Source: Desulfobulbus propionicus DSM 2032
GTDB lineage: Bacteria; Desulfobacterota; Desulfobulbia; Desulfobulbales; Desulfobulbaceae
DNA length: 32,000 nt
Reading direction: 5' to 3'
Assembly (NCBI RefSeq): GCF_000186885.1
Contig: NC_014972.1
Location: forward strand, 1,530,001 to 1,562,000
Shown: piece after piece, positions 1 through 25,089 of the stretch
How positions within the stretch are numbered: position 1 is the stretch's first letter
Layout of the letters: every line of letters begins with the position of its first letter
Notes under the pieces: generated by a model
Told to the model about the DNA's origin: nothing
Seen by the model: the letters and a program-made list of their open reading frames with translations, nothing else
Database searches by the model: none
Program-made: the position numbers and the translations under genes

Positions 1-134
1 AGAGGTTGGCGGACGATGAACAACTGGAAAAAGGCGATGACCGCGACGATGGGCGCCAGATCGACACAAGCGGACCAGTTTTTCTTCGCGACATAGTGCA
101 GGTGTCTGACAAACGGATGATGAAAGCCTGGCAT
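1..134 (-). CDS. Hypothetical integral membrane protein, N-terminal fragment (gene runs off the left edge)
   Basis: The minus-strand frame from ATG (132..134) reads MPGFHHPFVRHLHYVAKKNWSACVDLAPIVAVIAFFQLFIVRQPL. It has GC-rich third positions and a hydrophobic helix. A GGAG lies 7 nt upstream of the ATG. It is absent from the ORF track because it is truncated. From memory it resembles DUF1538-type membrane protein N-termini, which I cannot verify. Confidence 0.35.
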   Translation of the reverse strand, partial: MPGFHHPFVRHLHYVAKKNWSACVDLAPIVAVIAFFQLFIVRQP

Positions 135-201
135 TCATGTGCTCCGTTGCGAGTGTCCGCCTGAAAAAGGCCGGCAGGGCGCAGGCGATGGGGAAACTTA
201 T

Positions 202-221
202 AATTTATGCTATCATAAATT
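202..221. promoter_or_regulatory. Perfect 8-4-8 palindrome AATTTATG-ctat-CATAAATT in an AT-rich island; candidate operator
   Basis: Read directly: 202..209 is AATTTATG and 214..221 is CATAAATT, its exact reverse complement. It lies about 70 bp upstream of the minus-strand ATG at 134 and is the only AT-rich patch in an otherwise GC-rich spacer. Confidence 0.3.
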
Positions 222-277
222 CGATTGTTTCTCCACCGTTGAAACAGTGGCCGGGGGTGCAACACCGACTGTGCAAC

Positions 278-312
278 AAAAAAAAGCCGGGTCATTGACC
301 CGGCTTTTTTTT
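278..312. terminator. Bidirectional rho-independent terminator ending the kor-hdr operon
   Basis: The sequence is aaaaaaaa-GCCGGGTC-attg-GACCCGGC-tttttttt. An 8-bp GC-rich stem is flanked by an A-run and a T-run, so either strand reads as hairpin plus U-tract. It sits 21 nt beyond the hdrA stop (333). Confidence 0.75.
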
Positions 313-332
313 GTTCATGGATGGGGCTGTTC

Positions 333-2756
333 TTACAGTTTGCTGAGAATGTTCTGGGTTTCGGCGATTTCCTCGGCGGTCACGCTTTGCCGGATCTGTT
401 CCATTCGTTTCATGGTTTCGGCAAAACGGATGCCCTCGGCGGCGCTGATCCACTCCAGTTGCAACCGTTCCGGACGGATGCCGATCTTTTCCATCTTCTT
501 GTGGATGCGGGCCACCCGCTTCTCGGTCCAGTGGTTGGCGTCGATGTAATGGCAGTCGCCGATATGGCAGCCGCTGACCAGCACCACCGGCGCACCTTTG
601 CGGAAGCCTTCCCAGATGAACTTCTCATCCACCCGGCCCGAACACATCACCCGTACCAGGTGCACGTTGGCCGGATACTGCAACCGCGAGACACCGGCAT
701 AATCGGCGCCGGCATACGAGCACCAGTTGCAGGCAAAGGCGAGGATCTTCGACTCCGGCGCCGTATCGAGCATGGTGTCCACCTGACCAAGAATCTGGGT
801 GTCGGTGAAGTGGTTCATGCTGATAGCGTCGAACCGGCATTCGGCCGAGCAGGTGCCGCAGCCGGCGCAGGCCGCCGAATTGACCACCGCCGGCTTCTTG
901 TTCTTCACATCCACGGTGATCGCGCCATACGGACAGACCTCGGCGCACTTGCCGCAGGCCTTACACTTTTCGGCGATGATCGTCGAGGTGATTGGCTCGG
1001 TGGTGATCTCCCCTCTATGCATCACCCGAATCGCCCGCATGGCCGCAGCCGAGGCCTGGGTGACGCTGTCCTTAATGTCCTTGGGGCCCTCAGCGCAGCC
1101 GGCAAAGAAGATGCCACGGGTGGCGGCATCCACCGGCTGCAATTTGGGATGGGCTTCAAGGTAGAAACCGTCCGAGGTCAGCTGCAACCCCATGATCTCC
1201 TGCAAGCGCTGGGTCGAGGGCGCGGGTTTTATTCCCTGGGCCAGCACCAGCATGTCGAGGTCGTGAAATTCGAGTTTGCTAGTGGCAGCATTTTCCACCG
1301 CCACCCGCAGGCTGCCGTTATCAAGCTCCTCGACAGAGCCGGGCAGGCCGCGGATGTACTGGGCACCCATGCGGCGACTGCGGGTATAGAGATCTTCAAA
1401 CCCCTTGCCAAAGGCCCGGATGTCAATATAGAACACCTTGACCTCGACATCGGGATAATGCTCCTTGATGATGAAGGTCGATTTGATGGTGTTCATGCAG
1501 CAGATGTTGGAGCAGTAGTGGCCGCCCTTCTTGGCCGAGCGCGAGCCCACACACTGGATGAACCCAACCGATTTCGGGTGGTTTCTGTCCGAAGGCCGCA
1601 CCAGGGACCCTTTGGTCGGACCGCTGGCGTTGACCAACCGCTCGAATTCCAGGCTGGTCAGCACGTTGTCAAACCGGGTGTAACCGTACTCGTCCATTTC
1701 GGTCGGGTCGTAGGGCTGCAGGCCGGTGGCGACGATGATCGTGCCCACCTCCTCGATGATCTCCTCGTCCGACATGTGGAAATTGATGCAGCCCTTGGCG
1801 CAGACCTCGACGCATTTGGAGCACACCGCCGGGTTGTGGCCCAGGCACTCCTTGGCGTTGATCAGGTACGAGGAGGGCACCGCCTGAGGAAAGGGCGAGT
1901 AAATGGCCTTGCGCGATCCCAGCCCCATGTTGAACTCATCGGGCCGCACCACCGGGCAGACCTTGGCGCACTCACCGCAGGCCGTGCAGCTCGTCTCATC
2001 AACATAACGCGCCTTCTTAATGATTTTTACTTTGAAGTTACCGACGTATCCTTTTACATCGACCACTTCGCTCAACGTCAACAGCTTTATCCGTGGATGT
2101 CGACCGACATCCGTCATCTTAGGACCTAAGATTCAAATGGAGCAGTCCATCGTCGGGAAAGTCTTGTCGATCTGGGCCATGATGCCGCCGATGGAGGGGC
2201 TCTTCTCCACCAGGGTAACGTCATAGCCGCTGTCAGCCAGGTCGAGCGCCGCCTGGATCCCGGCCACGCCGCCGCCGATGACCAGGGTCTTCGGGGTCAG
2301 GGGGAGGGTGTCCTCGTGCAGCGGCTCCAGGTGGCGTACCCGGCTGATGGCCATGTTGACCAGGGTCTCGGCCTTGAGGGTCGCCCCCTCCTTGTCGTTC
2401 ATGTGCACCCAGGAGCATTGTTCGCGCAGGTTGGCCATATCGAGCATGTAGGGGTTGAGGCCCACCGCGTCGATCATCTTCTTGAAGGTCGCCTCATGGA
2501 GGCGCGGCGAGCAGGAGGCGATCACCACCCGGTCGAGGCCATTGTCGATGATGTCCTGCTTGATCTGCTGCTGCCCCGGCTCGGAACAGGCGTAGACGAT
2601 ATCCTTGGACACCACGACGCCGTCCTCGTTCTCCACGGTCTGGGCGACACGATGGCAGTCGACGGATTGGGCGATGTTGAGGCCGCAGTGGCAGACATAG
2701 ACGCCGATGCGGGGTTCCTGGTCGCCGGCGGGTTTGGCAGAAGTAGGTTTTGACAT
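333..2756 (-). CDS. hdrA: Heterodisulfide reductase subunit A fused to a C-terminal MvhD domain; predicted selenoprotein (807 aa, Sec at residue 208 encoded by TGA 2133..2135)
   Basis: Track ORFs 2133..2756 and 333..2117 share one frame and are separated only by a TGA plus 15 nt. Read-through gives ...IDKTFPTMDCSI-U-ILGPKMTDVGRHPRIKLLT..., the conserved HdrA segment.
- N-terminal part: Cys cluster (VYVCHCGLNI) and Rossmann motif VIGGGVAGIQAAL.
- Middle: ferredoxin motifs CTACGECAKVCP and CKACGKCAEVCP.
- C-terminus: MvhD-type ILAFACNWCSYAGAD...MCSGR...SGCHIGDCHY.
- GGAGAA RBS 6 nt upstream of the ATG at 2756. Confidence 0.85.
2096..2132 (-). promoter_or_regulatory. Candidate bacterial SECIS element downstream of the hdrA UGA
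   Basis: The mRNA after the UGA reads AUCUUAG-GUC-CUAAGAU (nt +1..+17, 7-bp stem), then AUGACG..., then GAUGUC-GGUC-GACAUC (nt +22..+37, 6-bp stem with a GGUC apical loop). The GGUC loop resembles the E. coli fdhF SECIS apex as I recall it. Folding was done by eye only. Confidence 0.45.
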
Positions 2757-2871
2757 GGTTGTTCTCCGAAAAAGCGTATGAGCTTGTTGGTCTATTCGTC
2801 TGTAGGATTTTGGTCGGGAGGGGTTCGTTGTTTGCCTCGCGGACCGGTCCCGCTACAGGTGATCGATCTTC

Positions 2872-4479
2872 TTATTCCCAGCGGATGGTCTGGGCGATAA
2901 CGCTGGTCAAATCCATCAGTTCGATGCTGAGCTGTTCGCGGCGGAAGGGGTCTTCCATGGCGCATTTGAGATGGATCTGGCATTTGGGGCAGGCGGTGAC
3001 CACCAGGTCGCTGCCGGTGGCGTGCGCCTGCTGAAGCCGTTTGACCTGCATGGCCTTGCTGTAGCTGTCGCAGCCGGTCCAGGCACAGTTGCCGCAGCAG
3101 ATCGAGGCACCGCCGGATTCCTTCATTTCCACGAATTGTTTGGGTTTGAGCCGTTTGAGCAGTTTGCGCGGCAAATCGACCCTCCCCTCCAGGCGGCCCA
3201 GGCGGCAGGAATCCTGGAAGGTGATCGCATGGTCAAACGGTTCGAAGCCGACGGCTCCCTTGTCAATCTGTTCTTCAAGGAAATCATAGAGATGGACCAC
3301 CTTGAATTTTGGTTCCAGCCCCTGCTCGGCATAGGTGGTGCGCAGGGTCATGAAACACTCGGGACAGGTGGTGATCACCGTCTCGATGCCCAGTTGATTG
3401 AGCTGGTCGACATTGAGCCGGGCCAGCCGTAGAAAGTTTTCCCGGTCGCCGGACCAGAGCAGGTCGTGGCCGCAGCAGCGCTCGTCGCTCAGCAGGCGGG
3501 GGGCGACGTCGAAAAAGTTCAGCAACCGCAGGCTGTCGATCAGAATCCGGTTGGTTTCCACTTCCATGCGCTTGCCGAAAAAAACATCGTAATAGGGAGC
3601 GCAACCGCCGAAAAACAGGGTGGTACTGTGCGGATCGACGCGAATGTCCTCGGGCAGCTCGGTCCATCGCTTGGGAGTGATCGAGGGCGAGCTCATGGAG
3701 CGCATCAACGAATGGAAAAAGCCGCCGTGCACCTCCTGGCCAGGGAGTTCGGTTTGCCGGTAAAGGTGGCGCAATTCCTTGATGAAGGCTGGAAAGTTGA
3801 CCGCCGAGGGGCAGCGCTCATAGCAGAGACCGCAGGTCAGGCAGGACCAGGCGTTTTCGCGCACGCCGGGCGCGTGGATGCCGCCGGTGATCACCGCCGA
3901 GGCAATGGCACGCGGCGAGAAGGATTTGCCGATCAGAGCCAGGGGGCAGGCCGAGGTGCATTTGCCGCAATCCTGGCAGGCGTGGATATCGTAGGTAGCG
4001 ACCAGCTGCTGCAGTTCCTGCTTGCAGGCGGCCACATCCGGGACCGGAACCACCGGCACGGGATCGATGCCGGCCGGCCCAAGGGCGCGAATATCGGAGC
4101 TGAACTCCTGGAGAAAGGCGAGCAGCTGCTCCGACTCTTCCGGGAGAAAGGCGGCGAAGCGCAACCGGTCACCGCCCAGGCCCATGATATCGAGCACCTT
4201 CTGCACGTCCTGGGTGTTGCGCTGGGAGGTGGCGGTGCCGCTGCCGTAGCGGCAGGTGCCTGGTTCGCAACCCACCAGGGCGACGCCGTCTGCGCCCTTG
4301 GCAAAAGCCTTGAGCATCATTGCCCGGTCGATGCGGCCGGTGCATGGAGTGCGAACCATGCGGATCTCGTCGGGAATGGGCCGGCGCTGATCCTGCAGGG
4401 TGAGGAAGGCGGCATGGGCCCCCCAGTTACAGAGAAAAAGAAGGATATTCAACTTGTTGTGACTGGCTTGATTATTCAT
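2872..4479 (-). CDS. MvhD-HdrC-HdrB fusion protein (535 aa): MvhD-like domain, 2x[4Fe-4S] ferredoxin domain and two CCG domains
   Basis: - The chosen start, MNNQASHNKLNILLFLCNWGAH..., overlaps the upstream stop within ATGAATAA. The track ORF extends to 4608, but that extension is an Ala/Pro/Arg-rich stretch overlapping the upstream gene.
- MvhD-like segment: LCNW...PCTGR...VGCEPGTCRY.
- HdrC-like motifs: CQDCGKCTSACP and CLTCGLCYERCP.
- HdrB-like CCG motifs: ERCCGHD...TTCPEC and SICCGNC...TACPKC. Confidence 0.8.
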   Translation of the reverse strand: MNNQASHNKLNILLFLCNWGAHAAFLTLQDQRRPIPDEIRMVRTPCTGRIDRAMMLKAFAKGADGVALVGCEPGTCRYGSGTATSQRNTQDVQKVLDIMGLGGDRLRFAAFLPEESEQLLAFLQEFSSDIRALGPAGIDPVPVVPVPDVAACKQELQQLVATYDIHACQDCGKCTSACPLALIGKSFSPRAIASAVITGGIHAPGVRENAWSCLTCGLCYERCPSAVNFPAFIKELRHLYRQTELPGQEVHGGFFHSLMRSMSSPSITPKRWTELPEDIRVDPHSTTLFFGGCAPYYDVFFGKRMEVETNRILIDSLRLLNFFDVAPRLLSDERCCGHDLLWSGDRENFLRLARLNVDQLNQLGIETVITTCPECFMTLRTTYAEQGLEPKFKVVHLYDFLEEQIDKGAVGFEPFDHAITFQDSCRLGRLEGRVDLPRKLLKRLKPKQFVEMKESGGASICCGNCAWTGCDSYSKAMQVKRLQQAHATGSDLVVTACPKCQIHLKCAMEDPFRREQLSIELMDLTSVIAQTIRWE

Positions 4480-7400
4480 GGACGCTGTCCTTGGAGAGCA
4501 ACTCCTCAAGGGCCTGTTCGAGAAAGGCCCGATTGCGGTAGGGACTGTCGGCGGCGCCGGTGGGGCAGACCGAGAGGCAGTTGCCGCAGCCCTTGCACAG
4601 GGCTTCATCGATGTGGGCGTGCCAGCCCCCCACGGTGTTGGCTTGCAGGGTCACCGCGTGATAGAGACAGACATTGGCGCAACGGCCGCAGCCGCGGCAC
4701 AGCTGGTCGTCGATGGCCGCGGTGAATCCCTTGGACTGGCGGGGGCCACGCGGCATGGCCGCCGCCACCATCACCGCCGCCGCCGTTCCCTTTTTTAGCT
4801 TGGAAACGTTGATGTCCGGCGGTTCGGCCAAATACAGGCCGGGCACCGAGGTGGCGCAGGGATAGGCAAAGGGGATGCCGGTGATCCCGCGCTCCTGCAT
4901 CAGCGGCTCGACCGGGGCGCTCGGCAGTCCTTCCTGGTGACTGTAGGCGATGCGCCGCCGGGCCTTTTCCCCGAGGATGACCGTGCCGGCCCGCAGGATC
5001 TGACTGTGGCCGTCGGATTCGATCAATATCTGAAAGTCACCCAAGGTGCCGCTGATGCCCTTGACGTTCCAGTCCGGGAAGTTGTGGATATTGGCATGAT
5101 CAACCAGATCGGTGAGCGGCTGCTCGGCGGTCCCGAAACGGAAGACCTCGTGATCGCTGTCCGCCAGCGTCAGGGCGCTGGTGATGGTCGCCTGGGAGTT
5201 GCCGATGACCGCGGCGGCAAAGTTGTAGTTGCGGTCCACCGTCGGCAGCGGCTTGAGGGTCAGGGTCCGCTTGATCGAGCGTTGCAGCAATCCCTTGAAC
5301 CGGTCCAGGGCCAATGCTGGATTGGATTCGACCAGCCGGAGAATCTCGCCGCGCAGGTTGCAGGTCTCGACCATGGAACGGCTGATGCCGGTACCGTGGA
5401 ACAGGTTGTTTTTCAACCGGCTGCGTTGATCGGTACAGGCGCTGCACACAAAATTGAGCGGGCAGCAGACGCAGGAGGCGAGCACCAGGCGGGTGATCCC
5501 CTTTTCCCGCACCGCATGGATGATGGCCTGGGAGCCTTCCTCCACGCAGGCCGAGGCGAGCATCTCGGTGTGGACGATGTCCGGGTCGGTGGCGGCCAGT
5601 TGTTCGAGGTAGTCGTTCATGCCTTCCAGCCAGCCCAGGCTGTCGTTGCAGCGGCAGACAAAAACACCGATGCGGATCTCCGGCGACAGGCCGGAGTCTG
5701 GCACCGAGACCGTGCGGCCGTGTCCCTTGGTCTTGTTGGAGGCGCCGCCCAGCAGCAGCATGGCACGGGCGGCGGCGTCAAAACCCCGCACGATCATGTC
5801 GTTGACATTGGGCCGCGCCGCCTTGGGCCCATAGGCGCGGATGATGTCGTCGCCCTTGATGTTGGGGGCGATGTTCGGATCGGCGACGATCACCGCGCCG
5901 CACTGTTCGACGACCTCGTCTTTTTCCTGGAAATGGTCGATGGCCTTGAGCGCGCCGCAGGCGGCGACGCACTGCAGGCATTCCGAGCACACGCCGCATT
6001 GCAGGCAACGGCTGGCCTCGGCCGCCATCTGGGATTGGGTGAAGCCCGTGGCCACTTCCTGAAAACTGTGCATTCGCGTGGCTGCCTGGAGTTCGGGCAC
6101 ACGGGTGCGCGGTTGCTTGGGCAGATCCTCGGGAATACAACGGAAATCCTTGGCGTTCGGCCGGGACACCGCACTCTCCTCGCGGATGCCGCTGAGGTCC
6201 GCGTGGATGGCACGCGCCGCCTTGCGCCCGGTGGCCATGGCCTTGACCACCGAGGAAGGACCGGAAACCGTGTCGCCGGCGGCGTAGACCCGGGCCATGG
6301 TGGTGTGCAACTCCTGATCGGTTTCGATGAAACCGCGTTCGCTGACCGCGATCCGGCCGCCGAAGCTCTTGGCGGTATAGCCGCCCACCTGGCCGATGGC
6401 CACGAAGGCGCGGTCAAAGGCACGTTGAACAGGTTGCTGCCCCTCGGCCACCACCGGCCAGGCGATGCCGCGGCTGTCCGGTTTACCCGGTTGGGTGCGC
6501 ATGCATTCCAGGTGACTGAAGCGGCCGTTTTCGCCCCGGAAGGCGACCACCTGGGTGGCGTCGATGATCGTCACCCCCTCCTCGACCGCCTCGCGGACCT
6601 CGTCCGGATCGGCCGGGATGTGTTCGGCATCGAACCAGGAAACGATGCTCACCTGGGCGCCCATGCGGGCCAGGGTACGGGCCAGGTCAAAGGCCGAGTT
6701 GCCGTCGCCGATCACCGCCACCTTTTCCGGTAGACTGGTCAGTGCCTCCCATTCCTTGCGCGCCAGGAACGCCAGGCATCCTTCCACTCCCGGCAGATCC
6801 TCGCCCTCGACACCCATCCGCCGGTCCTGCCAGGTGCCGGTGGAGAGGATCAGGGCATCGTGTTCCCGGGACAGACGATCAAGGTCGGCGGCCAGATCAA
6901 TGGGGTGATTGGCGACAAAGTTGACTCCCATCTGTTCGATCAGGTGGATCTCGCGGTCGAGAATGGCACGCGGCAGACGATGGGCGCCGATGCCGTAGCG
7001 GAGCAGTCCGCCGACCTCGGGCTCCTTTTCAAAGACCGTGACCCCGTAGCCCTTGCGCGCCAGGTCGGCCGCGGCGGCGATCCCCGCCGGACCGGAACCG
7101 ATCACCGCGATGTTCTCGGGCCGTTTCGCCACGGTTTGCTCCGCCGTGATCTGAGCGGCGGCCTCGGTGCTTTCGTAGTCGGCGAGAAAACGCTTGATCG
7201 CCCGAATCGACACCGGATCGTCGACTCCGCCGCGACGACAGGCTTCCTCGCAGGGATGGGTGCAGACCCGGCCGCAAATGCCGGGCAGGACATTGTCCCG
7301 GCGGATCAGGGCCAGGGCCTCGGCATATCTGCCTTGGGCGGCCAGGGCGATGTAGCCTTGGGCATTGACCCCCAGCGGACAGTTTTCCTGGCAGAGCGGC

Positions 7401-7852
7401 TGGCGACGCTTGTCGATCCAAGGTCGGCCAGGCAGGCTGGTGCGGGCGTTGTAGCGCAATGCCCGGCCGCCATCCGGATGGTTCACGGGGCAGGCGGCCA
7501 CGCATTTGCCGCACAGGGTGCAGCGGTCGGTGTCGATAAAGGTCTGCTCCTGATCGATGCGGACACTGAATCCCTGAGAGGTGTGTTTGATAGAGCTAAT
7601 TCGTGCCGGCAGCAGGGTGCGGATCGAGGTGTTGCGGATGATTCGGATCAGGCCCGGTCGATGGGCAAAATTGAAGGTCAAGCCGGAGGGCAGGCGGTAT
7701 TCTTCGGCCGCCAGTTTGCGGTCCAGGTCGGGATCGCCATCGATCAGGGTTACTGGAATACCCAGTTCACCCAGCTTGTTGGTGGCGGCGATGCCCTCCG
7801 GGGTGGCGCCGGCGACGATCACCCGATACAATCGTTCTTTCTGTCGTTTCAT
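4472..7852 (-). CDS. Large HdrA-like/GltD(NfnB)-like multidomain flavo-iron-sulfur oxidoreductase (HdrL-like, 1126 aa)
   Basis: - N-terminal degenerate Rossmann motif: YRVIVAGATPEG.
- Ferredoxin motif: CTLCGKCVAACP.
- Glutamate-synthase-small-subunit-type module: RYAEALALIRRDNVLPGICGRVCTHPCEEACRRG, IAVIGSGPAGIAAAADLARKGYGVTVFEKEPEVGGLLRYGI, VAVIGDGNSAFDLA, VYAAGD.
- HdrA-type Cys-rich modules: CLQCGVCSECLQCVAACGA, IGVFVCRCNDSLGW, LVLASCVCCPLNFVCSAC.
- C-terminal 2x[4Fe-4S] motifs: CRGCGRCANVC and CKGCGNCLSVCP.
- The start ATG overlaps the korC stop (ATGA). Confidence 0.8.
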   Translation of the reverse strand: MKRQKERLYRVIVAGATPEGIAATNKLGELGIPVTLIDGDPDLDRKLAAEEYRLPSGLTFNFAHRPGLIRIIRNTSIRTLLPARISSIKHTSQGFSVRIDQEQTFIDTDRCTLCGKCVAACPVNHPDGGRALRYNARTSLPGRPWIDKRRQPLCQENCPLGVNAQGYIALAAQGRYAEALALIRRDNVLPGICGRVCTHPCEEACRRGGVDDPVSIRAIKRFLADYESTEAAAQITAEQTVAKRPENIAVIGSGPAGIAAAADLARKGYGVTVFEKEPEVGGLLRYGIGAHRLPRAILDREIHLIEQMGVNFVANHPIDLAADLDRLSREHDALILSTGTWQDRRMGVEGEDLPGVEGCLAFLARKEWEALTSLPEKVAVIGDGNSAFDLARTLARMGAQVSIVSWFDAEHIPADPDEVREAVEEGVTIIDATQVVAFRGENGRFSHLECMRTQPGKPDSRGIAWPVVAEGQQPVQRAFDRAFVAIGQVGGYTAKSFGGRIAVSERGFIETDQELHTTMARVYAAGDTVSGPSSVVKAMATGRKAARAIHADLSGIREESAVSRPNAKDFRCIPEDLPKQPRTRVPELQAATRMHSFQEVATGFTQSQMAAEASRCLQCGVCSECLQCVAACGALKAIDHFQEKDEVVEQCGAVIVADPNIAPNIKGDDIIRAYGPKAARPNVNDMIVRGFDAAARAMLLLGGASNKTKGHGRTVSVPDSGLSPEIRIGVFVCRCNDSLGWLEGMNDYLEQLAATDPDIVHTEMLASACVEEGSQAIIHAVREKGITRLVLASCVCCPLNFVCSACTDQRSRLKNNLFHGTGISRSMVETCNLRGEILRLVESNPALALDRFKGLLQRSIKRTLTLKPLPTVDRNYNFAAAVIGNSQATITSALTLADSDHEVFRFGTAEQPLTDLVDHANIHNFPDWNVKGISGTLGDFQILIESDGHSQILRAGTVILGEKARRRIAYSHQEGLPSAPVEPLMQERGITGIPFAYPCATSVPGLYLAEPPDINVSKLKKGTAAAVMVAAAMPRGPRQSKGFTAAIDDQLCRGCGRCANVCLYHAVTLQANTVGGWHAHIDEALCKGCGNCLSVCPTGAADSPYRNRAFLEQALEELLSKDSVHE

Positions 7853-8451
7853 TGCGCCTTGGCTCCTGTCTGGCCGGCGGCCCGTTTTTCCCGACCCTTG
7901 AGGGTGGACAGACCGTAATCAAATCCCTTGGTGAAGGCCTCGATGTTGCGTTCCTCGGTGCCCTTGGGCACTGACTGGCGGATGGTGGCCTGGGCGGCCT
8001 CGCTGGAAACCGCCTTGGTGATGGCGGTACAGAAACCGAGCATGATGATGTTGGCCATCATCTTGTTGCCCAGATTCTCGGCCATGCGGGTGGCCGCGAT
8101 GGCGAAATGGTCGCAGGGCGCGTTTTCCGGGTTGACCAGGTCTTGGTCGACCAGGAGTACCGACTCGGGCACCAGGGCTGGCGCGAATTTGTCGTAGCCG
8201 GCCTGGGACATGGCCACCAGGATCTTGGGGGTGTTGACGTAGGGGTAATGGATCGGGACGTCGGAGATGATAACCTGGGCATTGCAGGCGCCGCCGCGCG
8301 ATTCCGGGCCATAGGCCTGGACCAGGGTGGATTCCTTCTTGTCGCCGAGCGAGGCCGCCATGCCGAGGATCCGACCGGCCAGAATGATGCCCTGGCCGCC
8401 GAAACCGGTGACGATGATCTCGGTCTGGCTGGATGGTGCGTTTTTGCTCAT
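7849..8451 (-). CDS. korC: 2-oxoacid:ferredoxin oxidoreductase gamma subunit (probably 2-oxoglutarate-type)
   Basis: The sequence IIVTGFGGQGIILAGRILGMAA...YGPESRGG is the characteristic gamma-subunit motif. Size is 200 aa. It is the last gene of a delta-alpha-beta-gamma order like OorDABC/KorDABC. Substrate specificity is not provable from sequence alone. Confidence 0.8.
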   Translation of the reverse strand: MSKNAPSSQTEIIVTGFGGQGIILAGRILGMAASLGDKKESTLVQAYGPESRGGACNAQVIISDVPIHYPYVNTPKILVAMSQAGYDKFAPALVPESVLLVDQDLVNPENAPCDHFAIAATRMAENLGNKMMANIIMLGFCTAITKAVSSEAAQATIRQSVPKGTEERNIEAFTKGFDYGLSTLKGREKRAAGQTGAKAQ

Positions 8452-8482
8452 GGTGTTTCCCGGAATGGAGAAGAGAAAAGGA

Positions 8483-9331
8483 TCAATCGTCGTTGCATGG
8501 ACGGCAGATTTGATTGTACCGATCGTCGCAGGTGGTGCGATCGATGTCGATGAACGTGCCGATCACCACCCCCTTGGCGAAATCGATGTCCGCCTGGGCC
8601 GGATCGGCACCGTTCTTGATGATCGTCCGATCCTGGTAGAGTTTGAGGGTATCGAGGGGCTTTTCCTTGTTGCGCCGGCCGTAATTGATGGGGCAGGGCG
8701 AGAGCACCTCGATGAAGGAAAATCCCTTGCGGCTGATGGCTTCGTTGATTGCCGTGGTTAGGTCCCGGGTCTGGAGAATGGTCCAGCGAGCCACATAGGA
8801 GGCGCCGGCGGCATAGGCCAGCAGCGGCAGGTTGAACGGCGCGTCCGGGTTGCCCAGCGGCGTGGTGGTCGATTTGGCCATGCTCGGCGTGGTGGCCGCC
8901 ACCTGGCCGCCGGTCATGCCGTAGGTCAGGTTGTTGACGCAGATCACGGTCAGGTCCATGTTGCGCCGCGCCGCATGGATGAAGTGATTGCCGCCTATGG
9001 CGAACAGGTCGCCGTCACCGGAAAAGACGATCACCTTGAGCTCCGGGTTGGCCATCTTGATGCCGGTGGCAAAGGGAATGGCCCGGCCGTGGGTGGTGTG
9101 AAAGGAGTCGAGCTTGATGTACCCGGCTCCACGCGCCGAGCAGCCAATGCCCGAAACCATGGTGAACTTGTTGTAGGGGATGCCGGTGGCCTTGATGGCG
9201 CTCAGGCACGAAGAAAACACCGTGCCGATGCCGCAACCCGGACACCAGATATGGGGGATGCGGTCGGTGCGGATCAGGTCGTCCAGCGGATGTTCGGGCT
9301 GCTTGGCCAATTTTTTCGGATTGGTGGTCAT
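8483..9331 (-). CDS. korB: 2-oxoacid:ferredoxin oxidoreductase beta subunit (TPP-binding)
   Basis: The start MTTNPKKLAKQPEHPL...IWCPGCGIG carries the beta-subunit Cys motif. The TPP motif is VFSGDGDLFAIGGNHFIHAARRN. The ATG lies 4 nt after the korA stop. The track ORF's extra 34 N-terminal residues overlap korA and were rejected. Confidence 0.85.
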   Translation of the reverse strand: MTTNPKKLAKQPEHPLDDLIRTDRIPHIWCPGCGIGTVFSSCLSAIKATGIPYNKFTMVSGIGCSARGAGYIKLDSFHTTHGRAIPFATGIKMANPELKVIVFSGDGDLFAIGGNHFIHAARRNMDLTVICVNNLTYGMTGGQVAATTPSMAKSTTTPLGNPDAPFNLPLLAYAAGASYVARWTILQTRDLTTAINEAISRKGFSFIEVLSPCPINYGRRNKEKPLDTLKLYQDRTIIKNGADPAQADIDFAKGVVIGTFIDIDRTTCDDRYNQICRPCNDD

Positions 9332-9335
9332 AAGC

Positions 9336-10481
9336 TTAAAATTTCTCCTGAATGCACTCCAGCACCTTGTCCGGGTGAATGATTTTGCCGCCGGCACTGC
9401 CGACCAGATAGGCTTGGGCTTGGCCGCCGGCACAACGCTCGACCTCGTAGTGGACCTGACCGAGGTTGATTTCCACGGTGATGAAGCCCTTGACCCGGGC
9501 CGCGATCTCGCGGATCAGCTTTTCGGGAAAGGGCCAGACCGTGACCAACCGCAACAGTCCGGCCTTGTAGCCCATGGCCCGGGCCTGGTCGACCGCGCTC
9601 AGGCCGGTGCGCACCGAGATGCCGTAGCTGACGATGACGATGTCGGCATCCTCCATCCGGTAACTCTCGGTCTCGATGATGTCGTCGAGGTTATTGCGGA
9701 TTTTGCCCTTGATCCGCGCCATCATCTCTTCCTGGGCCTCGACGGTCATCGAAGGGTAGCCGCGCTCGTCGTGGGTCAGGCCGGTCACGTGGATGTTGTA
9801 GCCGTCACCAATGGCTGGCATGGGGGCCACGCCGTTGGCTCCCGGTTCGTACAGCCTGAACCGGTCCTTGCGGCCGGTGGGTTTGGGCCGGTCGATCAGG
9901 CGGATCTTGCTGGCTTCGGGGATGACCACCTTCTCGCTCATGTGGCCGACAATTTCATCGGCCATGAGCAGCACCGGCACCCGGTATTTCTCGCTCAGGT
10001 TGAAGGCGCGGATGGTCTGGTAAAAACAATCCTGGGGCGAGGAGGGGGCCAGGGCAATCAGTTCGTAGTCGCCGTGCGAGCCCCAGCGGGCCTGCATCAT
10101 GTCGCCTTGGCCGGTCTGGGTGGGCAGGCCGGTGGACGGGCCGGTGCGCTGCACATTGACGATCACGCAGGGGGTTTCGGTGCACACGGCCAGGCCCAGG
10201 TTCTCCATCATCAAGCTGAATCCGGGGCCCGAGGTGGCGGTCATTGACTTGACCCCGGTCCAGGCCGCGCCGAGAATCGAGGCGATGGCCGCGATCTCGT
10301 CTTCCATCTGGATAAAGGTGCCGCCGATGTCGGGCAGGCGTTCGGCCATGTGTTCGGCGATCTCGGTGGCCGGGGTGATCGGATAGGCGCCGAAGAATTT
10401 GCATCCGGCCGCGATGGCCCCCTCGGCGCAGGCCACGTCGCCGGTGATGTAATGTTCGCCGGTAAGCACGGCAGGTTTCAT
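9336..10481 (-). CDS. korA: 2-oxoacid:ferredoxin oxidoreductase alpha subunit
   Basis: Supporting motifs are ITGDVACAEGAIAAGCKFFGAYPITPATEI, TATSGPGFSLMMENLG and PCVIVNVQRTGPSTGLPT, the typical alpha-subunit signature. Size is 381 aa. Confidence 0.9.
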   Translation of the reverse strand: MKPAVLTGEHYITGDVACAEGAIAAGCKFFGAYPITPATEIAEHMAERLPDIGGTFIQMEDEIAAIASILGAAWTGVKSMTATSGPGFSLMMENLGLAVCTETPCVIVNVQRTGPSTGLPTQTGQGDMMQARWGSHGDYELIALAPSSPQDCFYQTIRAFNLSEKYRVPVLLMADEIVGHMSEKVVIPEASKIRLIDRPKPTGRKDRFRLYEPGANGVAPMPAIGDGYNIHVTGLTHDERGYPSMTVEAQEEMMARIKGKIRNNLDDIIETESYRMEDADIVIVSYGISVRTGLSAVDQARAMGYKAGLLRLVTVWPFPEKLIREIAARVKGFITVEINLGQVHYEVERCAGGQAQAYLVGSAGGKIIHPDKVLECIQEKF

Positions 10482-10502
10482 ATCAGGTCTCTCGCGGAAA
10501 AA

Positions 10503-10778
10503 TTATTTGGAAACGGCTGCTGGCTCGGTCTCCACCGAATAGATGGCGAACTCGGGGCAGATGATCTCACAGTAGTGGCAGTTGACGCATTCGCCGGGCT
10601 TGGTGACCACCGGCGGGTGGTACCCCTTGCGGTTGAACTTGTCGGAAAACTGGAGGATGTCCTTGGGGCAGAACTCGATGCAGTAGCCGCAGCCCTTGCA
10701 TCGGTCGTCGATGATGTACACCGTGCCCCGGGTGACTTGGATGTCCTGGGCGTCAAGAGGTACTCGCCAAAATGCCAT
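10503..10778 (-). CDS. korD: 2-oxoacid:ferredoxin oxidoreductase delta subunit (2x[4Fe-4S] ferredoxin)
   Basis: A 91-aa protein with CKGCGYCIEFCP and CVNCHYCEIICP. It is the first gene of the operon, 21 nt upstream of korA. Confidence 0.8.
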   Translation of the reverse strand: MAFWRVPLDAQDIQVTRGTVYIIDDRCKGCGYCIEFCPKDILQFSDKFNRKGYHPPVVTKPGECVNCHYCEIICPEFAIYSVETEPAAVSK

Positions 10779-10892
10779 GTTGCCTGCCTGTGTGTGGTAA
10801 GGGTTGCCTTCGTGCCGTTGTCACGGCGGGAGAAAGGATTGCCGCGAAGGAAAAACAGGAGACTGGATGGCCTCCGCACTCCCAAGCCTGCA

Positions 10893-10921
10893 ACTAAACT
10901 GGAAATAGATGTAGATGTCAA
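10893..10921 (-). promoter_or_regulatory. Candidate sigma70-type promoter for the kor-hdr operon
   Basis: The minus strand reads TTGACA (10916..10921), a 17-nt spacer, then TTTAGT (10893..10898). This would give a leader of about 105 nt before the korD ATG. Pattern match only. Confidence 0.35.
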
Positions 10922-11182
10922 GGGCGGAAACGAAAGAGGCGGGGGAAAGTTGAGACACGGTCGGATTTTTGTCGACGGTGTCTCTGATTTTTCTCCTGTG
11001 CTCTGTTTTGGTGGCCATGGGCTTCCAGCGGACCGGCACGCGGCGAGGACGGGTATTGACCGTCCGTATCGCGACAGACGGGAAACAACCGGTTGTGGCC
11101 TGTCCGTTTGGCTGGGGTGTGCTCCTTGTGGGTGCCGAAGTTTTCACGGCGCATAAAAAGGACCGGGTTGTCTTGTTGCGGG

Positions 11183-11210
11183 TTGCTGTTTTTTTCAGAC
11201 CTGGTATATT
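11183..11210 (+). promoter_or_regulatory. Candidate sigma70-type promoter for the TSUP permease gene
   Basis: TTGCTG (11183..11188), a 16-nt spacer, then TATATT (11205..11210), about 65 nt upstream of the ATG at 11274. Pattern match only. Confidence 0.4.
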
Positions 11211-11273
11211 GACACGAAAATAAAATCTATCGTGTTTGTGTTGCCCACCCCCTCACCTTTCAAGGAGACGCCC

Positions 11274-12188
11274 ATGCTGTTTCCCCTCTCCGGCATCACC
11301 GTCGATCCGTGGCTCCCGCCCCTCGTTGCCTTTGTCATTTCCTTTTTCACCTCCATGGGCGGCATTTCCGGGGCCTTTCTCCTCTTACCCTTCCAGCTGT
11401 CGGTGCTTGGCTACACCCACCCATCGGTCAGTTCCACCAACCAGTTGTACAATATCGTCGCCATCCCTTCGGGTGTATACCGCTACTGCAAGGAGGGGCG
11501 GATGGTCTGGCCCCTGGCTTGGGCGGTGGTGATCGGTACTCTGCCCGGGGTGCTGATCGGCGCCGTGGTGCGGGTGACCGGCTTGCGCGACCCACGACAT
11601 TTCAAGCTGTTCGCCGCCGTGGTCATTCTCTATATCGCCCTCAAGATGATCAAGGATCTGCGCCGACGACCTGCCGAGGCGGCAGCCGCCTCCAAGGGCG
11701 GTCCATTGGCCGCCACCTACGGCAACCCAGGGACCACGGTGACCATTACCCATCGCAACCTGAAGCGGATCGGCTATACTTTTCAGGGAGAATCCTACGA
11801 TGTGTCGGTCATGGGAATAGGCGTCCTCTGCTTCATCGTCGGTATCATCGGCGGCATCTACGGTATTGGCGGCGGCGCGATCATCGCTCCCTTTCTCGTT
11901 ACCTTTTTCGGCCTGCCGGTCTACACCGTGGCCGGGGCGGCTCTGATGGGCACCTTCGTCACCTCGGTGGCCGGCGTGGTCTTCTACACGGCCATCGCGC
12001 CGCTTTATCCGCAGCTCTCGGTGGCCCCGGACTGGCTGCTCGGCATTCTCTTTGGCCTGGGCGGCATGGCCGGCATGTATCTGGGGGCCCGCTGCCAGAA
12101 ATTCGTTCCCGCACGGGCGATCAAAGGGATGCTGGTGGTCATCATGCTGGGCACGGCCCTCAAGTACATCCTCGAATTCCTCAAATAA
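11274..12188 (+). CDS. TSUP (TauE/SafE) family anion permease, 304 aa
   Basis: A polytopic membrane protein with the internally duplicated 4+4 helix pattern and Gly-rich helices (FFTSMGGISGAFLLLPF..., IIGGIYGIGGGAIIAPFLV) typical of TauE/SafE-like transporters. The ATG at 11274 is preceded by AGGAG at 7 nt. The track's GTG at 11232 has no RBS. Confidence 0.8.
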   Translation: MLFPLSGITVDPWLPPLVAFVISFFTSMGGISGAFLLLPFQLSVLGYTHPSVSSTNQLYNIVAIPSGVYRYCKEGRMVWPLAWAVVIGTLPGVLIGAVVRVTGLRDPRHFKLFAAVVILYIALKMIKDLRRRPAEAAAASKGGPLAATYGNPGTTVTITHRNLKRIGYTFQGESYDVSVMGIGVLCFIVGIIGGIYGIGGGAIIAPFLVTFFGLPVYTVAGAALMGTFVTSVAGVVFYTAIAPLYPQLSVAPDWLLGILFGLGGMAGMYLGARCQKFVPARAIKGMLVVIMLGTALKYILEFLK

Positions 12189-15193: not shown

Positions 15194-16477
15194 TCAGAGG
15201 CAGCCGTCGACCGCCTCCGGGGGCAGGGTGCTCTTGACGTCGTAGATTACCGCCGCGGGTTTGCACAGGGCCCGCAGCTGTTCGGCGGAGAGGGTGGCGA
15301 ATTCCCGGTGGGCCACGGCCAGGATCACCGCGTCGTAGCGGCCCTGGGACGGGGGGTCGATCATGGTGACCCCGTACAGGCGCCGGGCTTCGTCCTGATC
15401 CACCCAGGGATCGTGGACCTCGACCCTGGCACCGAAGGTTCCCAGTTCGTCAATGATGTCGATCACCCGGGTGTTGCGCAGGTCGGGGCAGTTCTCCTTG
15501 AAGGTCAGGCCAAGAACGAGGATGTGGGCGTCGGCTACGTGGATGCGGCGCTTGAGCATCAGCTTGACCGTTTCCGAGGCGATGTAGCGGCCCATGTCGT
15601 CGTTGAGCCGGCGGCCGGCCAGGATCATCTCCGGATGGTAGCCGACCTCCTGGGCCTTGTGGGTCAGATAGTAGGGATCGACGCCGATACAGTGACCGCC
15701 GACCAGGCCGGGGCGGAAGGGCAGGAAGTTCCACTTGGTGCCGGCCGCCTTGAGCACTTCATGGGTGTTGATGCCCAGACGGTTGAAAATCAGGGCCAGC
15801 TCGTTGATCAGGGCGATGTTGACGTCGCGCTGGGTGTTCTCGATCACCTTGGCCGCCTCGGCCACCCGGATGGAACTGGCCTTGAAGGTGCCGGCGGTGA
15901 TCACCAGGCCGTAGAGGGCGTCGACAAAGTCGGCGATTTCCGGAGTCGAGCCGGAAGTGACCTTCATGATCGTCGGCAGCCGGTGCTCGTGGTCGCCGGG
16001 GTTGATCCGCTCCGGGCTGTAGCCGGCAAAAAAGTCGCGGTTGAACGCCAGGCCGCTGTCCCGTTCCAGGATCGGCACGCAGACTTCCTCGGTGGCCCCC
16101 GGATAGACGGTGGACTCGTAAATAACCACGTCGCCCTTGTTCAGCACCTTGGCCACGGTTTCCGAGGCCCGGATCAGGGGGGTGAAATCGGGCCGCTTGT
16201 TGGTGTCGATCGGGGTCGGTACGGCGACGATAAACACGTTGCAGGGCCGCAATTCCTCGATATCGCAGGTATAGTGCAGTTCCCCCGCCTGCCTGAGCTC
16301 TTCGCTGGAAACCTCGCGGGTGACATCGATGTGGCGCCGCAACTCATCGATTCGCTGCGCCTTGAGATCAAAGCCCACGGTCGGGACTTTCTTGCTGAAT
16401 TCCACGGCCAGGGGCAGGCCGACATAACCAAGACCAATGATGCCGATACGGCTATTTTCCAGAACGGGCATGGGCAT
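15194..16477 (-). CDS. Nucleotide-sugar 6-dehydrogenase (UDP-GlcNAc/GalNAc dehydrogenase, WbpO/TviB/CapL-like)
   Basis: [19 protein letters not shown] is the NAD Rossmann motif. The catalytic region is [18 protein letters not shown], and the C-terminal UDP-binding domain is present. The start is chosen at MPMPVLEN (16477). Alternatives are 16471, or 16582, which would overlap the queE stop by 8 nt. Confidence 0.85.
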
Positions 16478-16574
16478 TTCCTTAGAGGGGGTGAAGAAGA
16501 GCGGGGCTAGCTGCTTGATTTGTTTCAAGGAGTATAGGCCGAACCGGGGTGTTCGCAAAGGCCTTTTTCGTTCT

Positions 16575-17246
16575 TCAGACACCGCGGGCGCGATCGGGCC
16601 AGAGCAGGGCGTGCAGTTGCAGCTGCAGGCGAACGTTGAGCCGGTGGTCGAGCAGCAGCTGGGCGAGCAGGGCCGGGTCCAGCAGAGGGCGCACCGGCGA
16701 GAACAGGACCGGCAGCAGCCGGTCGAGCCGTTCGCGCGTCACCACCTGCCGGGCCCAGTGGAAATCATCGACCGAGCTGAGCACGAACTTGATCTCGTCG
16801 CGGCACTGCCGCCGGGCCCGTTCCCGCAGCAGGTCGAGGTTGTCGGCCAGGTTGTGAGCCGCCATGCCCGAATCCGGGCATTTGATGTCCATGACGATCC
16901 CCACTTCCTCCGGCACGCCGCACAGCGGCAGGCTGCCATTGGTTTCCAGCAGGACCGTGAGGCCGGCGGCAAGCAGGTTCCGCATGAGCGGATAGACGCC
17001 GTTCTGGCGCAGCGGCTCGCCGCCGGTGACTTCCACCATGACGCCGGGATACTGCTCGGCCCAGGCGAGAATTTCGTCCACGGTCATGGTTTCGCCGGTT
17101 TCCTCCCAGGTGTAGCGGGCATCGCAATAGCTGCAACGGAGATTGCAGCCGGCCAGCCGCACGAACAGGCAGGGCAGACCGGCCCGGGTCGATTCGCCCT
17201 GGATGGAATAAAAGCGTTCGCAAACCAGCAGGGGCTCAGTCACCAT
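16575..17246 (-). CDS. queE: 7-carboxy-7-deazaguanine synthase (radical SAM)
   Basis: The motifs are [34 protein letters not shown] (CX3CX2C) and VEVTGGEPL. Size is 223 aa. It overlaps the queD stop by 11 nt. Confidence 0.85.
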
Positions 17247-17604
17247 AATAGATCACGCCGGTGGAATCCGTTTCCCGCACTTCGACGCTGTACAGGCGGT
17301 AGCGTTCGGTCGTGAGCCGCGGCCTGAGACTGTCGAACAGGAACATGGCGATGTGTTCGGAAGAAGGGTTGATCTCTCGGAAGGCCGGGTGCTCGTTCAG
17401 GTCGCGGTGGTCGAGTTCGTCAACCACGGCATTGACCGTTTGTTTCAGCTGCTTGAAGTCGATGCCCATGCCGAGCTGATCGAGCTGGGAGGCCCGGACC
17501 GTGACTTTGACCTTCCAGTTGTGGCCATGGGGATTCTCGCAGTTGCCCGGGTAGGCGCGGAGGTGGTGGCCCCCGGAAAAATGGGTCTTGATGAACACAT
17601 CCAT
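17236..17604 (-). CDS. queD: 6-carboxy-5,6,7,8-tetrahydropterin synthase
   Basis: A 122-aa protein, MDVFIKTHFSGGHHLRAYPGNCENPHGHNWKVKV..., with Zn/His and catalytic Cys motifs of the PTPS/QueD family. An AAGGAG RBS is present. The track ORF's 134 upstream residues have no homology-like features and were rejected. Confidence 0.85.
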   Translation of the reverse strand: MDVFIKTHFSGGHHLRAYPGNCENPHGHNWKVKVTVRASQLDQLGMGIDFKQLKQTVNAVVDELDHRDLNEHPAFREINPSSEHIAMFLFDSLRPRLTTERYRLYSVEVRETDSTGVIYYGD

Positions 17605-17799
17605 GGTGTACTCCTTGGATATTGAGGGAAAAAGCGAAGAGGACCAGAAAAAAACCGGCTTGCGCGGCATCCTGGTGAAATGGTAAACAGAATCGCTGAT
17701 CTGTCCACCCCCCTTTGCCGCAGGCGGCGGAGTGTAGCAGGAAAGCGCCTGCTTGACCAGCCGGAAGGCGGGCTTGTGTCCATTTCCAGGGAGTTTCTC

Positions 17800-18561
17800 G
17801 TGCCGCGATCCCAGGCCTGCCCCAGCAGCAACGATACCCTCTTTGACGGCCGGCTGATCTGCCGTCAGAGCGTGGATGGTTACCGTTTTTCCGTGGACGC
17901 GGTGCTCGCCGCCCATTTTGCCGCGCCCCGGGCCGGGGAGCGGCTGCTCGATCTGGGGTGTGGCTGCGGGGTGATAGGCCTGATCCTCGCCCACCGTCAT
18001 GCGCACATTGCGGTTGTCAGCCTGGAACTACAGGAGGAGCTCGCCGCCCTAACAGAAGAAAACAGCCGGCTCAACGGCTTTGGCGACCGGTTGCGGGTGG
18101 TCCGCGGCGACGTGCGCACCGTGGGGGAGGTCCTGCCGCCGGAAAGTGTTGATTGGGTGGTGTGCAATCCGCCTTATGGCAGGCCGGACAGCGGCCGCGT
18201 CAACCAGGATCGGCAGGCTGCCCGGGCACGGCATGAAGTGAGCGGCACCCTGGCGGATTTTGTCCGCGCCGCCGCCTTCTGCGTGCGCAATCGGGGGCGG
18301 GTGGTGTTTGTCTATCCAGCCCGGCGCTGCAACACCCTGTTGCAGGCCCTGCACACCCACCGGCTGACGCCCAAACGGCTGCAACCCGTCTATTCCTACC
18401 CTGGCACGGACAATGCCCGGCTGGTGTTGGTCGAGGCGATGAAGAACGGCGGCGAACAGATCGATATCCTGTCCCCTTTTTATCTCTACGAGCGGAAGAA
18501 CGGCGAATATACGCCGGCCATGCTGGCCCTGTACCGGGAGGACCCATGCTGGCCAAGGTGA
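17800..18561 (+). CDS. SAM-dependent N6-adenine methyltransferase, tRNA1(Val) m6A37 TrmN6/YfiC-like
   Basis: YRFSVDAVLAA...LLDLGCGCGVIGLILA is the SAM motif I and VVCNPPY is the NPPY catalytic motif. The architecture is collinear with E. coli YfiC. GTG at 17800, preceded by GGGAG at 7 nt, is preferred over the ATG at 17680. The start is uncertain. Confidence 0.7.
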   Translation: MPRSQACPSSNDTLFDGRLICRQSVDGYRFSVDAVLAAHFAAPRAGERLLDLGCGCGVIGLILAHRHAHIAVVSLELQEELAALTEENSRLNGFGDRLRVVRGDVRTVGEVLPPESVDWVVCNPPYGRPDSGRVNQDRQAARARHEVSGTLADFVRAAAFCVRNRGRVVFVYPARRCNTLLQALHTHRLTPKRLQPVYSYPGTDNARLVLVEAMKNGGEQIDILSPFYLYERKNGEYTPAMLALYREDPCWPR

Positions 18562-22586: not shown

Positions 22587-22947
22587 CTGCTGCCTCCCGG
22601 CGGGAGGCGATGGTCCACGGAAACATCCAGGGCGACCGGTGTGGAGCGGACGACGGCACGACCCGCGGCCGGATGACCCGCGTGTTCGGGCCGCGGCGGG
22701 TCGTGATGCCTGACGGGCCGGAGAAAAAACGATGCGATCACTATCCTCTGGCGCATGGCGGTTGATCAATGTTGAGGGGGGCGACGGCGAGGACACCAAT
22801 ATACCGGCTCCATCCTACCCGAGGACAAACGAAAAGTATAGGCTTTCCAAGGGCTCCACGGGAGGCTACACTGGTGGCGGGTCAGTGATGCGCGGCTGTT
22901 CGGTGGTTTGGGACAGGTCGCTTCGCGTGGATCGGGGAGGAGGGGAT

Positions 22948-23247: not shown

Positions 23248-23490
23248 AAGAACGCCGCCGCTTTTCAGCCGTTGCCCTTGGTTGGCCGATTCGCACGCGC
23301 CATGTGTGCGCGCTGCCCGGTTTTCTCGAACAATCTCTTGAAATACAAGCCTTTGTTGAGTATCACTTGGCGATTGCCGCCCCAGTGGCCGCCTTTTTTA
23401 ACCCGTCGCCGCCAGCCCTGCGCGTCCCCCGGCAGGCTTGATGGCGTCCGGGCCTGCATTGTTGTCCAACGGACAAAGGAAACGATCGTC

Positions 23491-25080: not shown

Positions 25081-25089
25081 AGGTACCGC

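Follow-up and report, generated by a model that had tools for sequence, protein, structure and literature searches.

A predicted selenocysteine codon within a single HdrA2-type flavoprotein gene of Desulfobulbus propionicus that is annotated as two fragments

Selenocysteine-containing HdrA proteins and the D. propionicus locus

HdrA, the subunit A of heterodisulfide reductase, was listed as a bacterial selenoprotein family in 2006, with 16 members, seven of them from Syntrophobacter fumaroxidans (Zhang et al. 2006, PMC1794560), and a 2026 review of the prokaryotic selenoproteome places the HdrA selenoprotein family under the NCBIfam model NF040770, with the motif CxxU and one selenocysteine (Sec, U) (PMC13188914). 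Here we describe a gene of this family on the minus strand of a 32,000-nucleotide (nt) stretch of the Desulfobulbus propionicus DSM 2032 genome (NC_014972.1, positions 1,530,001 to 1,562,000; this whole stretch is called the window, and coordinates are given within it). The gene is interrupted by a TGA codon at 2135..2133, which, judging from comparative sequence evidence, is very probably a selenocysteine codon inside a single gene for an 807-amino-acid (aa) HdrA2-type flavoprotein, that is, HdrA fused to MvhD.

The closest described systems are the Sec-containing HdrA proteins of Deltaproteobacteria, where Sec at this position has been catalogued since 2005-2006. In Desulfococcus multivorans the Sec-containing HdrA1 (dmul_C02770/80) is distributed over two locus tags and is encoded beside mvhD1 and a gene for a pyridine-nucleotide-disulfide oxidoreductase; selA, selB and selD are present in this organism, and HdrA1 has been detected by proteomics (PMC5109826). 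The gene studied here resembles the deltaproteobacterial ones (PMC1794560, PMC5109826) in the family, in the CxxU site, in the selenocysteine insertion sequence (SECIS) predicted directly 3' of the UGA and in the split annotation, and, as far as the loci can be compared by description, it adjoins mvhD and a pyridine-nucleotide-disulfide oxidoreductase, as in D. multivorans. There is no essential difference from these systems; particular to our case are the Desulfobulbus-type host and the cluster with 2-oxoacid:ferredoxin oxidoreductase (OFOR) genes, documented over 80 loci. The family assignment agrees with an earlier reading of the same DNA made from the sequence alone (the original prediction), which had counted HdrA among the known selenoprotein families of methanococci and some deltaproteobacteria, and this is borne out by the literature (PMC1794560, PMC13188914, PMC5109826).

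Among the structurally characterized relatives there are the Sec197 HdrA of Methanococcus maripaludis (9SFI) and the Cys197 HdrA of Methanothermococcus thermolithotrophicus (5ODC), whose position 197 corresponds to position 208 in our protein, the common motif being DKTFPTxDCxxU/CIL.PKM. Unlike the D. propionicus gene, where the predicted SECIS lies inside the coding sequence, archaeal Sec-HdrA genes have this element in the 3' untranslated region; moreover, archaeal HdrA lacks a fused MvhD/VhuD and works with the Mvh/Vhu hydrogenase or Fdh, while here the two are fused. Fusion in the same order, HdrA followed by a C-terminal MvhD, is characteristic of HdrA2 proteins (NF040770), which are named after the methanogen HdrA2B2C2-type enzyme. 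Still, many members of this group, including the one from the bacterium Desulfogranum japonicum, have Cys where the D. propionicus protein is predicted to have Sec, and the partners differ as well, being separate HdrB2 and HdrC2 in the methanogen type and MvhD-HdrCB and NfnB-like fusions here. To our knowledge, sulfate-reducing bacteria lack coenzymes M and B (CoM, CoB), so the substrate cannot be CoM-S-S-CoB.

A UGA at the Cys/Sec column of a single reading frame

The region 2756..333 of the minus strand is one frame of 808 codons, whose sole internal stop is the TGA in question, and reading through it yields the 807-aa product. In a mechanical list of open reading frames (ORFs) it appears as two ORFs sharing this frame, 2133..2756 (207 aa) and 333..2117 (594 aa), the gap between them being made of the TGA and five sense codons ATC TTA GGT CCT AAG (2132..2118), followed by ATG at 2117. 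The local read-through peptide is KTFPTMDCSI-U-ILGPKMTDVGRHPRIKLL, and the frame contains no further stops or frameshifts.

The read-through product, with Cys put in place of Sec, scores 1197.4 bits against NF040770 ("CoB-CoM heterodisulfide reductase HdrA2", curated cutoff 1100), with residues 16-796 covering model positions 1-775 of 777. Among sequences from the PDB, residues 13-663 align with residues 2-650 of 5odc_A, the M. thermolithotrophicus HdrA (E 8e-233), and residues 668-789 align with MvhD/VhuD chains (E 1e-37 to 1e-42), consistent with the Pfam match to FlpD (PF02662) at residues 671-788 (E 1.6e-47). Pfam also identifies ferredoxin-type 4Fe-4S domains (Fer4) and a match to Pyr_redox_2, the flavin adenine dinucleotide (FAD)-binding Rossmann domain, at residues 156-252, which spans the break. 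The resulting domain order is the HdrA N-terminal Fe-S domain, the FAD (thioredoxin-reductase-like) domain, inserted and C-terminal ferredoxin domains, and the fused MvhD. Since the break falls inside the nucleotide-binding domain, neither half is expected to be functional as a stand-alone flavoprotein.

These observations settle several points of the original prediction: the arrangement of the two ORFs, whose coordinates were correct to the base, their union in one HdrA-MvhD protein and the implausibility of either half as a separate protein all stand. It had also anticipated that automatic annotation would split the gene, and indeed public collections hold the two halves as separate entries of 594 aa and 207 aa, both named "heterodisulfide reductase subunit A". 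The closest relatives (80-94 % identity) are present in the protein database only as C-terminal fragments of 574-604 aa.

The position of the UGA within the family is well defined. Residue 208 aligns with Cys197 of 5odc_A (DKTFPTNDCSICILAPKM) and with the homologous Cys of 8rvu, 8rvv and 7bkb, while in 9sfi_A (KTFPTDDCAMXILAPKM) the aligned residue is the non-standard X197; a 2026 cryo-electron microscopy study of the M. maripaludis Hdr-Vhu-Fwd complex reports Sec197 (U197) in HdrA (PMC13518236). Thus, as had been proposed from the sequence alone, the UGA stands where the DCSxC pair has its second Cys, and the motif here, C205-S-I-U208, has the form CxxU.

Conservation of the UGA was assessed by a genome scan, with one genome per GTDB species, which yielded 80 related loci (L001-L080; 62-94 % identity). 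The query carried Cys at the UGA column, so the scan was not biased toward TGA. Counts below refer to 81 sequences, that is, the window and these 80 loci, and counts of base pairs to the 78 distinct sequences among them. The nearest loci come from an uncultured Desulfobulbus (94 %) and D. elongatus DSM 2908 (92 %), and the remaining ones mostly from other Desulfobacterota lineages, both genomes and metagenome-assembled genomes (MAGs), with a few MAGs labelled otherwise. All 80 have TGA at the homologous column (81/81 including the window), and neither UAA nor UAG ever occurs there. Both halves of the protein are under strong amino acid conservation in this alignment.

The immediate surroundings of the UGA bear on the possibility that it is a true stop, the locus encoding two separate subunits, of which the first is an Fe-S protein of 207 aa and the second, of 594 aa, is restarted at ATG 2117. 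Gene callers report both proteins separately and databases hold them so, other organisms do have HdrA genes that are split or arranged in tandem (PMC1794560, PMC9012536), and the Desulfobulbus clade has AGG approximately 8 nt upstream of the ATG. However, this AGG is missing in most lineages, the break lies inside the Rossmann/FAD domain, and the stop is invariably UGA, always with a GGUC hairpin after it. Moreover, the amino acids of codons +1 to +5, which separate the UGA from the ATG, are identical in 81/81 sequences, while the synonymous entropy of these codons is 0.97-1.88 bits. Being conserved in protein yet synonymously free, they are under protein-level selection and hence translated in frame, which speaks against termination and restart, and we consider the two-subunit arrangement very unlikely.

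Recoding at this codon would be site-specific. A scan of all TGAs with long flanking open frames showed real coding sequence both before and after the codon at 2135..2133 alone, and it found no second selenoprotein gene in the window. UGA is the ordinary terminator of other genes of the window (e.g., those with stops at 20094, 17236, 8483 and 20073), indicating that the genetic code is unchanged.

The hairpin following the UGA

Two hairpins had been noted after the UGA in the original prediction. Both exist, but only the second one belongs to the conserved signal. With the U of UGA taken as nt 1, it occupies nt 24-41 and has the form (G)GAUGUC-GGUC-GACAUC(C), with a stem of 6-7 base pairs (bp). 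In the 81-sequence alignment, synonymous entropy is close to zero only at codons +7 to +12, which are ACG (58 of 64 Thr codons), GAT (80/81), GUC or GCC, GGU (81/81), CGA or CGG, and CAU (81/81). Equally conserved flanking amino acids show synonymous variation of 0.6-2.4 bits, and elsewhere GAC and GGC dominate among Asp and Gly codons.

The frozen codons coincide with conserved pairing: 97.8 % of cells are paired, compared to 24-58 % with the 3' arm slid by 1-3 columns. At pair 29-36, 37 sequences have U-A, 34 have C-G and seven have U·G, and none is unpaired, as the change between Val (GUC) and Ala (GCC) is coupled to a silent change of the Arg codon (CGA/CGG) that preserves the pairing. The Desulfobulbus-type, Syntrophobacteraceae and Desulfobacteraceae groups each contain both states. 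The RNAalifold consensus contains the helix of this hairpin only. The GGUC loop is invariant (81/81), and so is the spacing of 27 nt (nt 4-30) between the UGA and the apical loop.

By the published criteria for bacterial SECIS (bSECIS) elements, the apical loop lies 16-37 nt from the UGA, is 3-9 nt long and has a G in its first two positions, after which G or U is usual; the upper stem has 4-16 bp, and the minimum free energy (MFE) is at most -7.5 kcal/mol (PMC13188914). The element in the window, with its 4-nt GGUC loop, 7-bp stem, 27-nt spacing and MFE of -9.4 kcal/mol (18-nt hairpin), lies within every one of these limits. Over the 81 sequences, the MFE of the 18-nt hairpin is -9.9 kcal/mol on average (range -7.1 to -11.5), and that of nt 21-45 ranges from -8.6 to -13.9 kcal/mol. 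We therefore treat this hairpin as a predicted SECIS, in line with the earlier claim of an fdhF-like GGUC loop at bacterial SECIS spacing.

In the SECIS of Escherichia coli fdhF, the apical loop is GGUC, its G and U being the SelB contacts, and it starts about 18 nt after the UGA. As in fdhF, the predicted element is an in-ORF stem-loop immediately 3' of the UGA with a GGUC loop and fits the bSECIS consensus. It differs from fdhF in the longer distance of the loop from the UGA and in being a perfect 7-bp helix with no bulged U and no conserved lower helix that includes the UGA.

Genes of the Cys type provide a further comparison. In two of them, from Desulfogranum japonicum (L081) and at locus L087, different codons are used for the same peptide TDVGRHP, and the hairpin is absent (-2.9 and -3.8 kcal/mol, respectively), while other Cys-type HdrA2 genes keep degraded hairpin remnants. 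In a Cys-type (TGT) HdrA2 gene from a seawater metagenome (L083), both arms, GAUGUC and GACAUC, are kept at 6628-6690 and the loop GGUC is mutated to AAUC; from its sequence, this element looks like a fossil SECIS after Sec-to-Cys conversion. SECIS remnants in Cys forms have been described (Zhang et al. 2006, PMC1794560). At the same locus, selB (8644-10554) is found approximately 200 nt downstream of the HdrA2 gene end.

The first hairpin, AUCUUAG-GUC-CUAAGAU, was considered as a part of the SECIS and rejected. It is fully complementary only in the window and in the closest Desulfobulbus-type relatives (L001-L003, L005, L014, L015), of its seven pairs, 6-18 is broken in 33 and 7-17 in 66 of the 78 sequences, and the pairs that never vary are dictated by invariant Ile, Gly, Pro, Lys and Met codons. 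The RNAalifold consensus fold lacks this hairpin, which is at most a local spacer structure.

Several observations weigh against selenocysteine decoding at this UGA. No Rfam family has a hit in the window at the gathering threshold, and no SECIS hit was obtained at E ≤ 10 on 1980..2260, where the only match at this level is an irrelevant plus-strand SAM-SAH (E 5.4). The 61-nt fold (-17.7 kcal/mol, z = -1.6) is not significant, 12 of 200 shuffled sequences folding equally well. Variation is confined to one of the seven stem pairs, and the covariation therefore comes from this pair only, though it switches within several lineages. Finally, no selA, selB, selD or tRNA-Sec gene is found in the 32 kb of the window by the Pfam survey, tblastn and ARAGORN. 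With the fold energy weak and no Rfam model available, the case for a SECIS relies on the comparative evidence given above. The Rfam miss weakens only the claim to membership in an Rfam family, and not the SECIS function.

The same absence of Sec machinery from the window could favor read-through of another kind, with the UGA reassigned to Trp or Gly, or a near-cognate tRNA inserting Cys or Trp and the hairpin acting as a general stimulator, the more so as the inserted amino acid is not identifiable from the sequence. Still, genome-wide reassignment is at odds with the use of UGA to end several ordinary genes of the window. In this column Cys-type homologues invariably have Cys and M. maripaludis has Sec, a classic Cys/Sec pair, the hairpin has a SelB-type GGU loop and bacterial SECIS spacing, and related Desulfobacterota carry both selABD and Sec-HdrA, which makes decoding by anything other than Sec very improbable. 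A pseudogene, or a sequencing or assembly error in a Cys codon, would take one base change from TGT or TGC to TGA, and full-length Cys-type homologues do exist at 60-74 % identity, but with TGA in the same column in 80/80 independent genomes and MAGs from many lineages, both halves conserved, no other stops or frameshifts, and a dedicated conserved hairpin present only after the UGA of TGA-bearing genes, this explanation is effectively refuted already.

Predicted decoding, role of residue 208 and gene context

As the sel genes are absent from the window, the capacity of the genome to decode Sec has to be judged from its relatives. The complete set of Sec-biosynthesis genes is present in "Ca. 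Desulfobulbus rimicarensis" (PMC7117923), and HdrA is one of 12 selenoproteins in Desulfotalea psychrophila (PMC1794560). A tblastn search with SelB of L083 and an ARAGORN search for tRNA-Sec returned nothing in the window or in L001-L080, L083 matching only itself. By analogy with the established bacterial pathway, the mRNA hairpin GGAUGUC-GGUC-GACAUCC, located 20 nt 3' of the UGA, would be bound through the G and U of its apical loop by SelB carrying guanosine triphosphate and Sec-tRNA(Sec), and SelB would deliver Sec at the UGA in competition with release factor RF2.

Judging from the solved homologues, Sec208 of the motif C205-x-x-U208 in the FAD domain would do the job of Cys/Sec197. In particular, it may serve as a trans ligand of the N-terminal [4Fe-4S] cluster in the other protomer, the role of Cys197 in the HdrABC-MvhAGD crystal structure, as summarised in PMC9012536. 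Alternatively, it may form a redox-active selenylsulfide with the neighbouring Cys, between the cluster and the bifurcating FAD; in the M. maripaludis cryo-electron microscopy structure, Sec197 and a Cys lie between the cluster and FAD, and the density is read as a possible selenylsulfide relay, the authors leaving the role undecided (PMC13518236).

The features of the locus are collected in Table 1.

Table 1. Features of the predicted selenoprotein gene and its cluster (coordinates within the window)
Feature	Coordinates	Strand	Basis
Predicted HdrA2-type selenoprotein, coding sequence	333..2756	-	807 aa; single frame; NF040770; match to 5odc_A (E 8e-233)
UGA predicted to be read as Sec, residue 208	2133..2135	-	U of the CxxU motif C205-S-I-U208; aligned to Cys197 of 5odc_A
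Five codons (I L G P K) from the UGA to the next ATG	2118..2132	-	Variation pattern of translated codons
First hairpin, AUCUUAG-GUC-CUAAGAU	2116..2132	-	Folds in the window; Desulfobulbus clade only
Predicted SECIS core hairpin, GGAUGUC/GACAUCC, loop GGUC (2105..2102)	2095..2112	-	Pairing, covariation, consensus fold, frozen codons
C-terminal MvhD/FlpD domain fused to HdrA, aa 671-788	393..746	-	PF02662 (E 1.6e-47); MvhD/VhuD chains from the PDB
MvhD-HdrC-HdrB fusion	2872..4479	-	FlpD, 4Fe-4S dicluster, two CCG domains (Pfam)
NfnB/GltD-like NAD(P)-binding flavoprotein with HdrA-like N-terminal cluster domain and C-terminal ferredoxin, 1126 aa	4472..7852	-	Fer4_20, Pyr_redox_2 (Pfam)
OFOR alpha	10481..9336	-	POR_N/PFOR_II (Pfam)
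OFOR beta	9433..8483	-	TPP_enzyme_C (Pfam)
OFOR gamma	8451..7849	-	POR (Pfam)

The gene with the predicted Sec codon is the last one in a minus-strand cluster (10481..333) that consists of the OFOR αβγ genes, the NfnB/HdrA-like fusion, MvhD-HdrCB and HdrA2(Sec)-MvhD. Presumably, the cluster encodes a cytoplasmic flavin-based bifurcating or confurcating complex that would link ferredoxin, NAD(P)H and a disulfide acceptor. Its composition is largely retained in the related loci: upstream of the Sec gene, OFOR genes are found at 54-57 loci, the NfnB-like fusion at 61, and MvhD-HdrCB, immediately upstream, at about 70 of the 80. The OFOR-linked orthologous group is of the Sec type in 81/81 sequences, while six distinct Cys-type HdrA2 genes (L081, L083-L087) occur in other contexts, e.g., beside an FdhA-like gene, beside MetF/MvhD, or alone. 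In the literature, nothing specific on the six-gene cluster as a unit was found beyond the description of D. multivorans, and in a promoter and terminator scan of 1..11500 the counts were at or below the shuffle expectation.

The MvhD-HdrCB ORF is open from 4608, where it overlaps the upstream gene by 137 nt, and its homologues align only from residues 27-54 onward, which makes the ATG at 4479 the probable start. This ATG overlaps the stop of the upstream gene (4474..4472) by 8 nt, which suggests translational coupling. In tblastn alignments of MvhD-HdrCB homologues, two in-frame stops are seen in L012, L057, L067 and L080, and one in each of L004, L034, L051, L055 and L062, while the copy in the window has none. 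MvhD and GlpC-like proteins are known selenoprotein families, and these stops could be further Sec codons or could reflect run-on of the alignment into the upstream gene.

The 1126-aa protein matches PRK12771 (E 4e-125), and its residues 727-903 match positions 1-165 of the NCBIfam HdrA2 model. The C-terminal half (4472..5800) contains an HdrA-type N-terminal cluster domain (RIGVFVCRC...) and a C-terminal ferredoxin, and its Rossmann motif is degenerate, reading VIGNSQAT instead of VIGGGVAG. No region equivalent to that around Cys197 (CxxC/U) was aligned in a BLASTP comparison with the HdrA2 product. Such complementarity between an N-terminal domain and Cys197 has been proposed for heterodimeric HdrA in anaerobic methanotrophic (ANME) archaea. 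As this half of the 1126-aa protein fits the ANME pattern, Sec208 of HdrA2 might serve the 1126-aa partner in trans. Tentatively, and with a low probability in our own estimate, the six-gene module may encode an uncharacterised bifurcating or confurcating complex of Desulfobacterota, in which HdrA2 and the 1126-aa protein would form an asymmetric heterodimer, with Sec208 acting in trans on the HdrA-type N-terminal [4Fe-4S] domain of the latter; if so, selenium would be mechanistically required in the complex and not optional.

Other genes of the window include sat (ATP sulfurylase, 29770..31050, plus strand), which fits a sulfate reducer, and, on the minus strand at 15194..18006 and 20094..22799, genes for a QueD-like protein (PTPS), a radical-SAM QueE-like protein, UDP-glucose dehydrogenase and a PAS histidine-kinase/receiver hybrid. 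A type III restriction-modification pair is located on the plus strand (23272..27738), consisting of an N6/N4 DNA methylase (602 aa) and a ResIII helicase-nuclease (882 aa). The adjoining minus-strand ORF (27860..29131) has a phage-integrase-like domain and two TOBE domains and possibly marks a mobile island.

With Sec at this position of HdrA catalogued long before, the finding carries no new biology, and it is a sound annotation correction within a catalogued selenoprotein family, not a discovery. It matters in two respects. The 207-aa and 594-aa "HdrA" fragments are in all probability one 807-aa selenoprotein, and metabolic reconstructions or proteomic databases based on the fragments will miss both the intact enzyme and the selenium dependence of the organism. 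Moreover, the alignment of 81 sequences is a clean example of a coding-region SECIS, in which the constraint on the RNA is directly visible in the frozen synonymous sites and in the Val/Ala change coupled to the silent Arg codon change, and which could be used to train or test SECIS and selenoprotein predictors.

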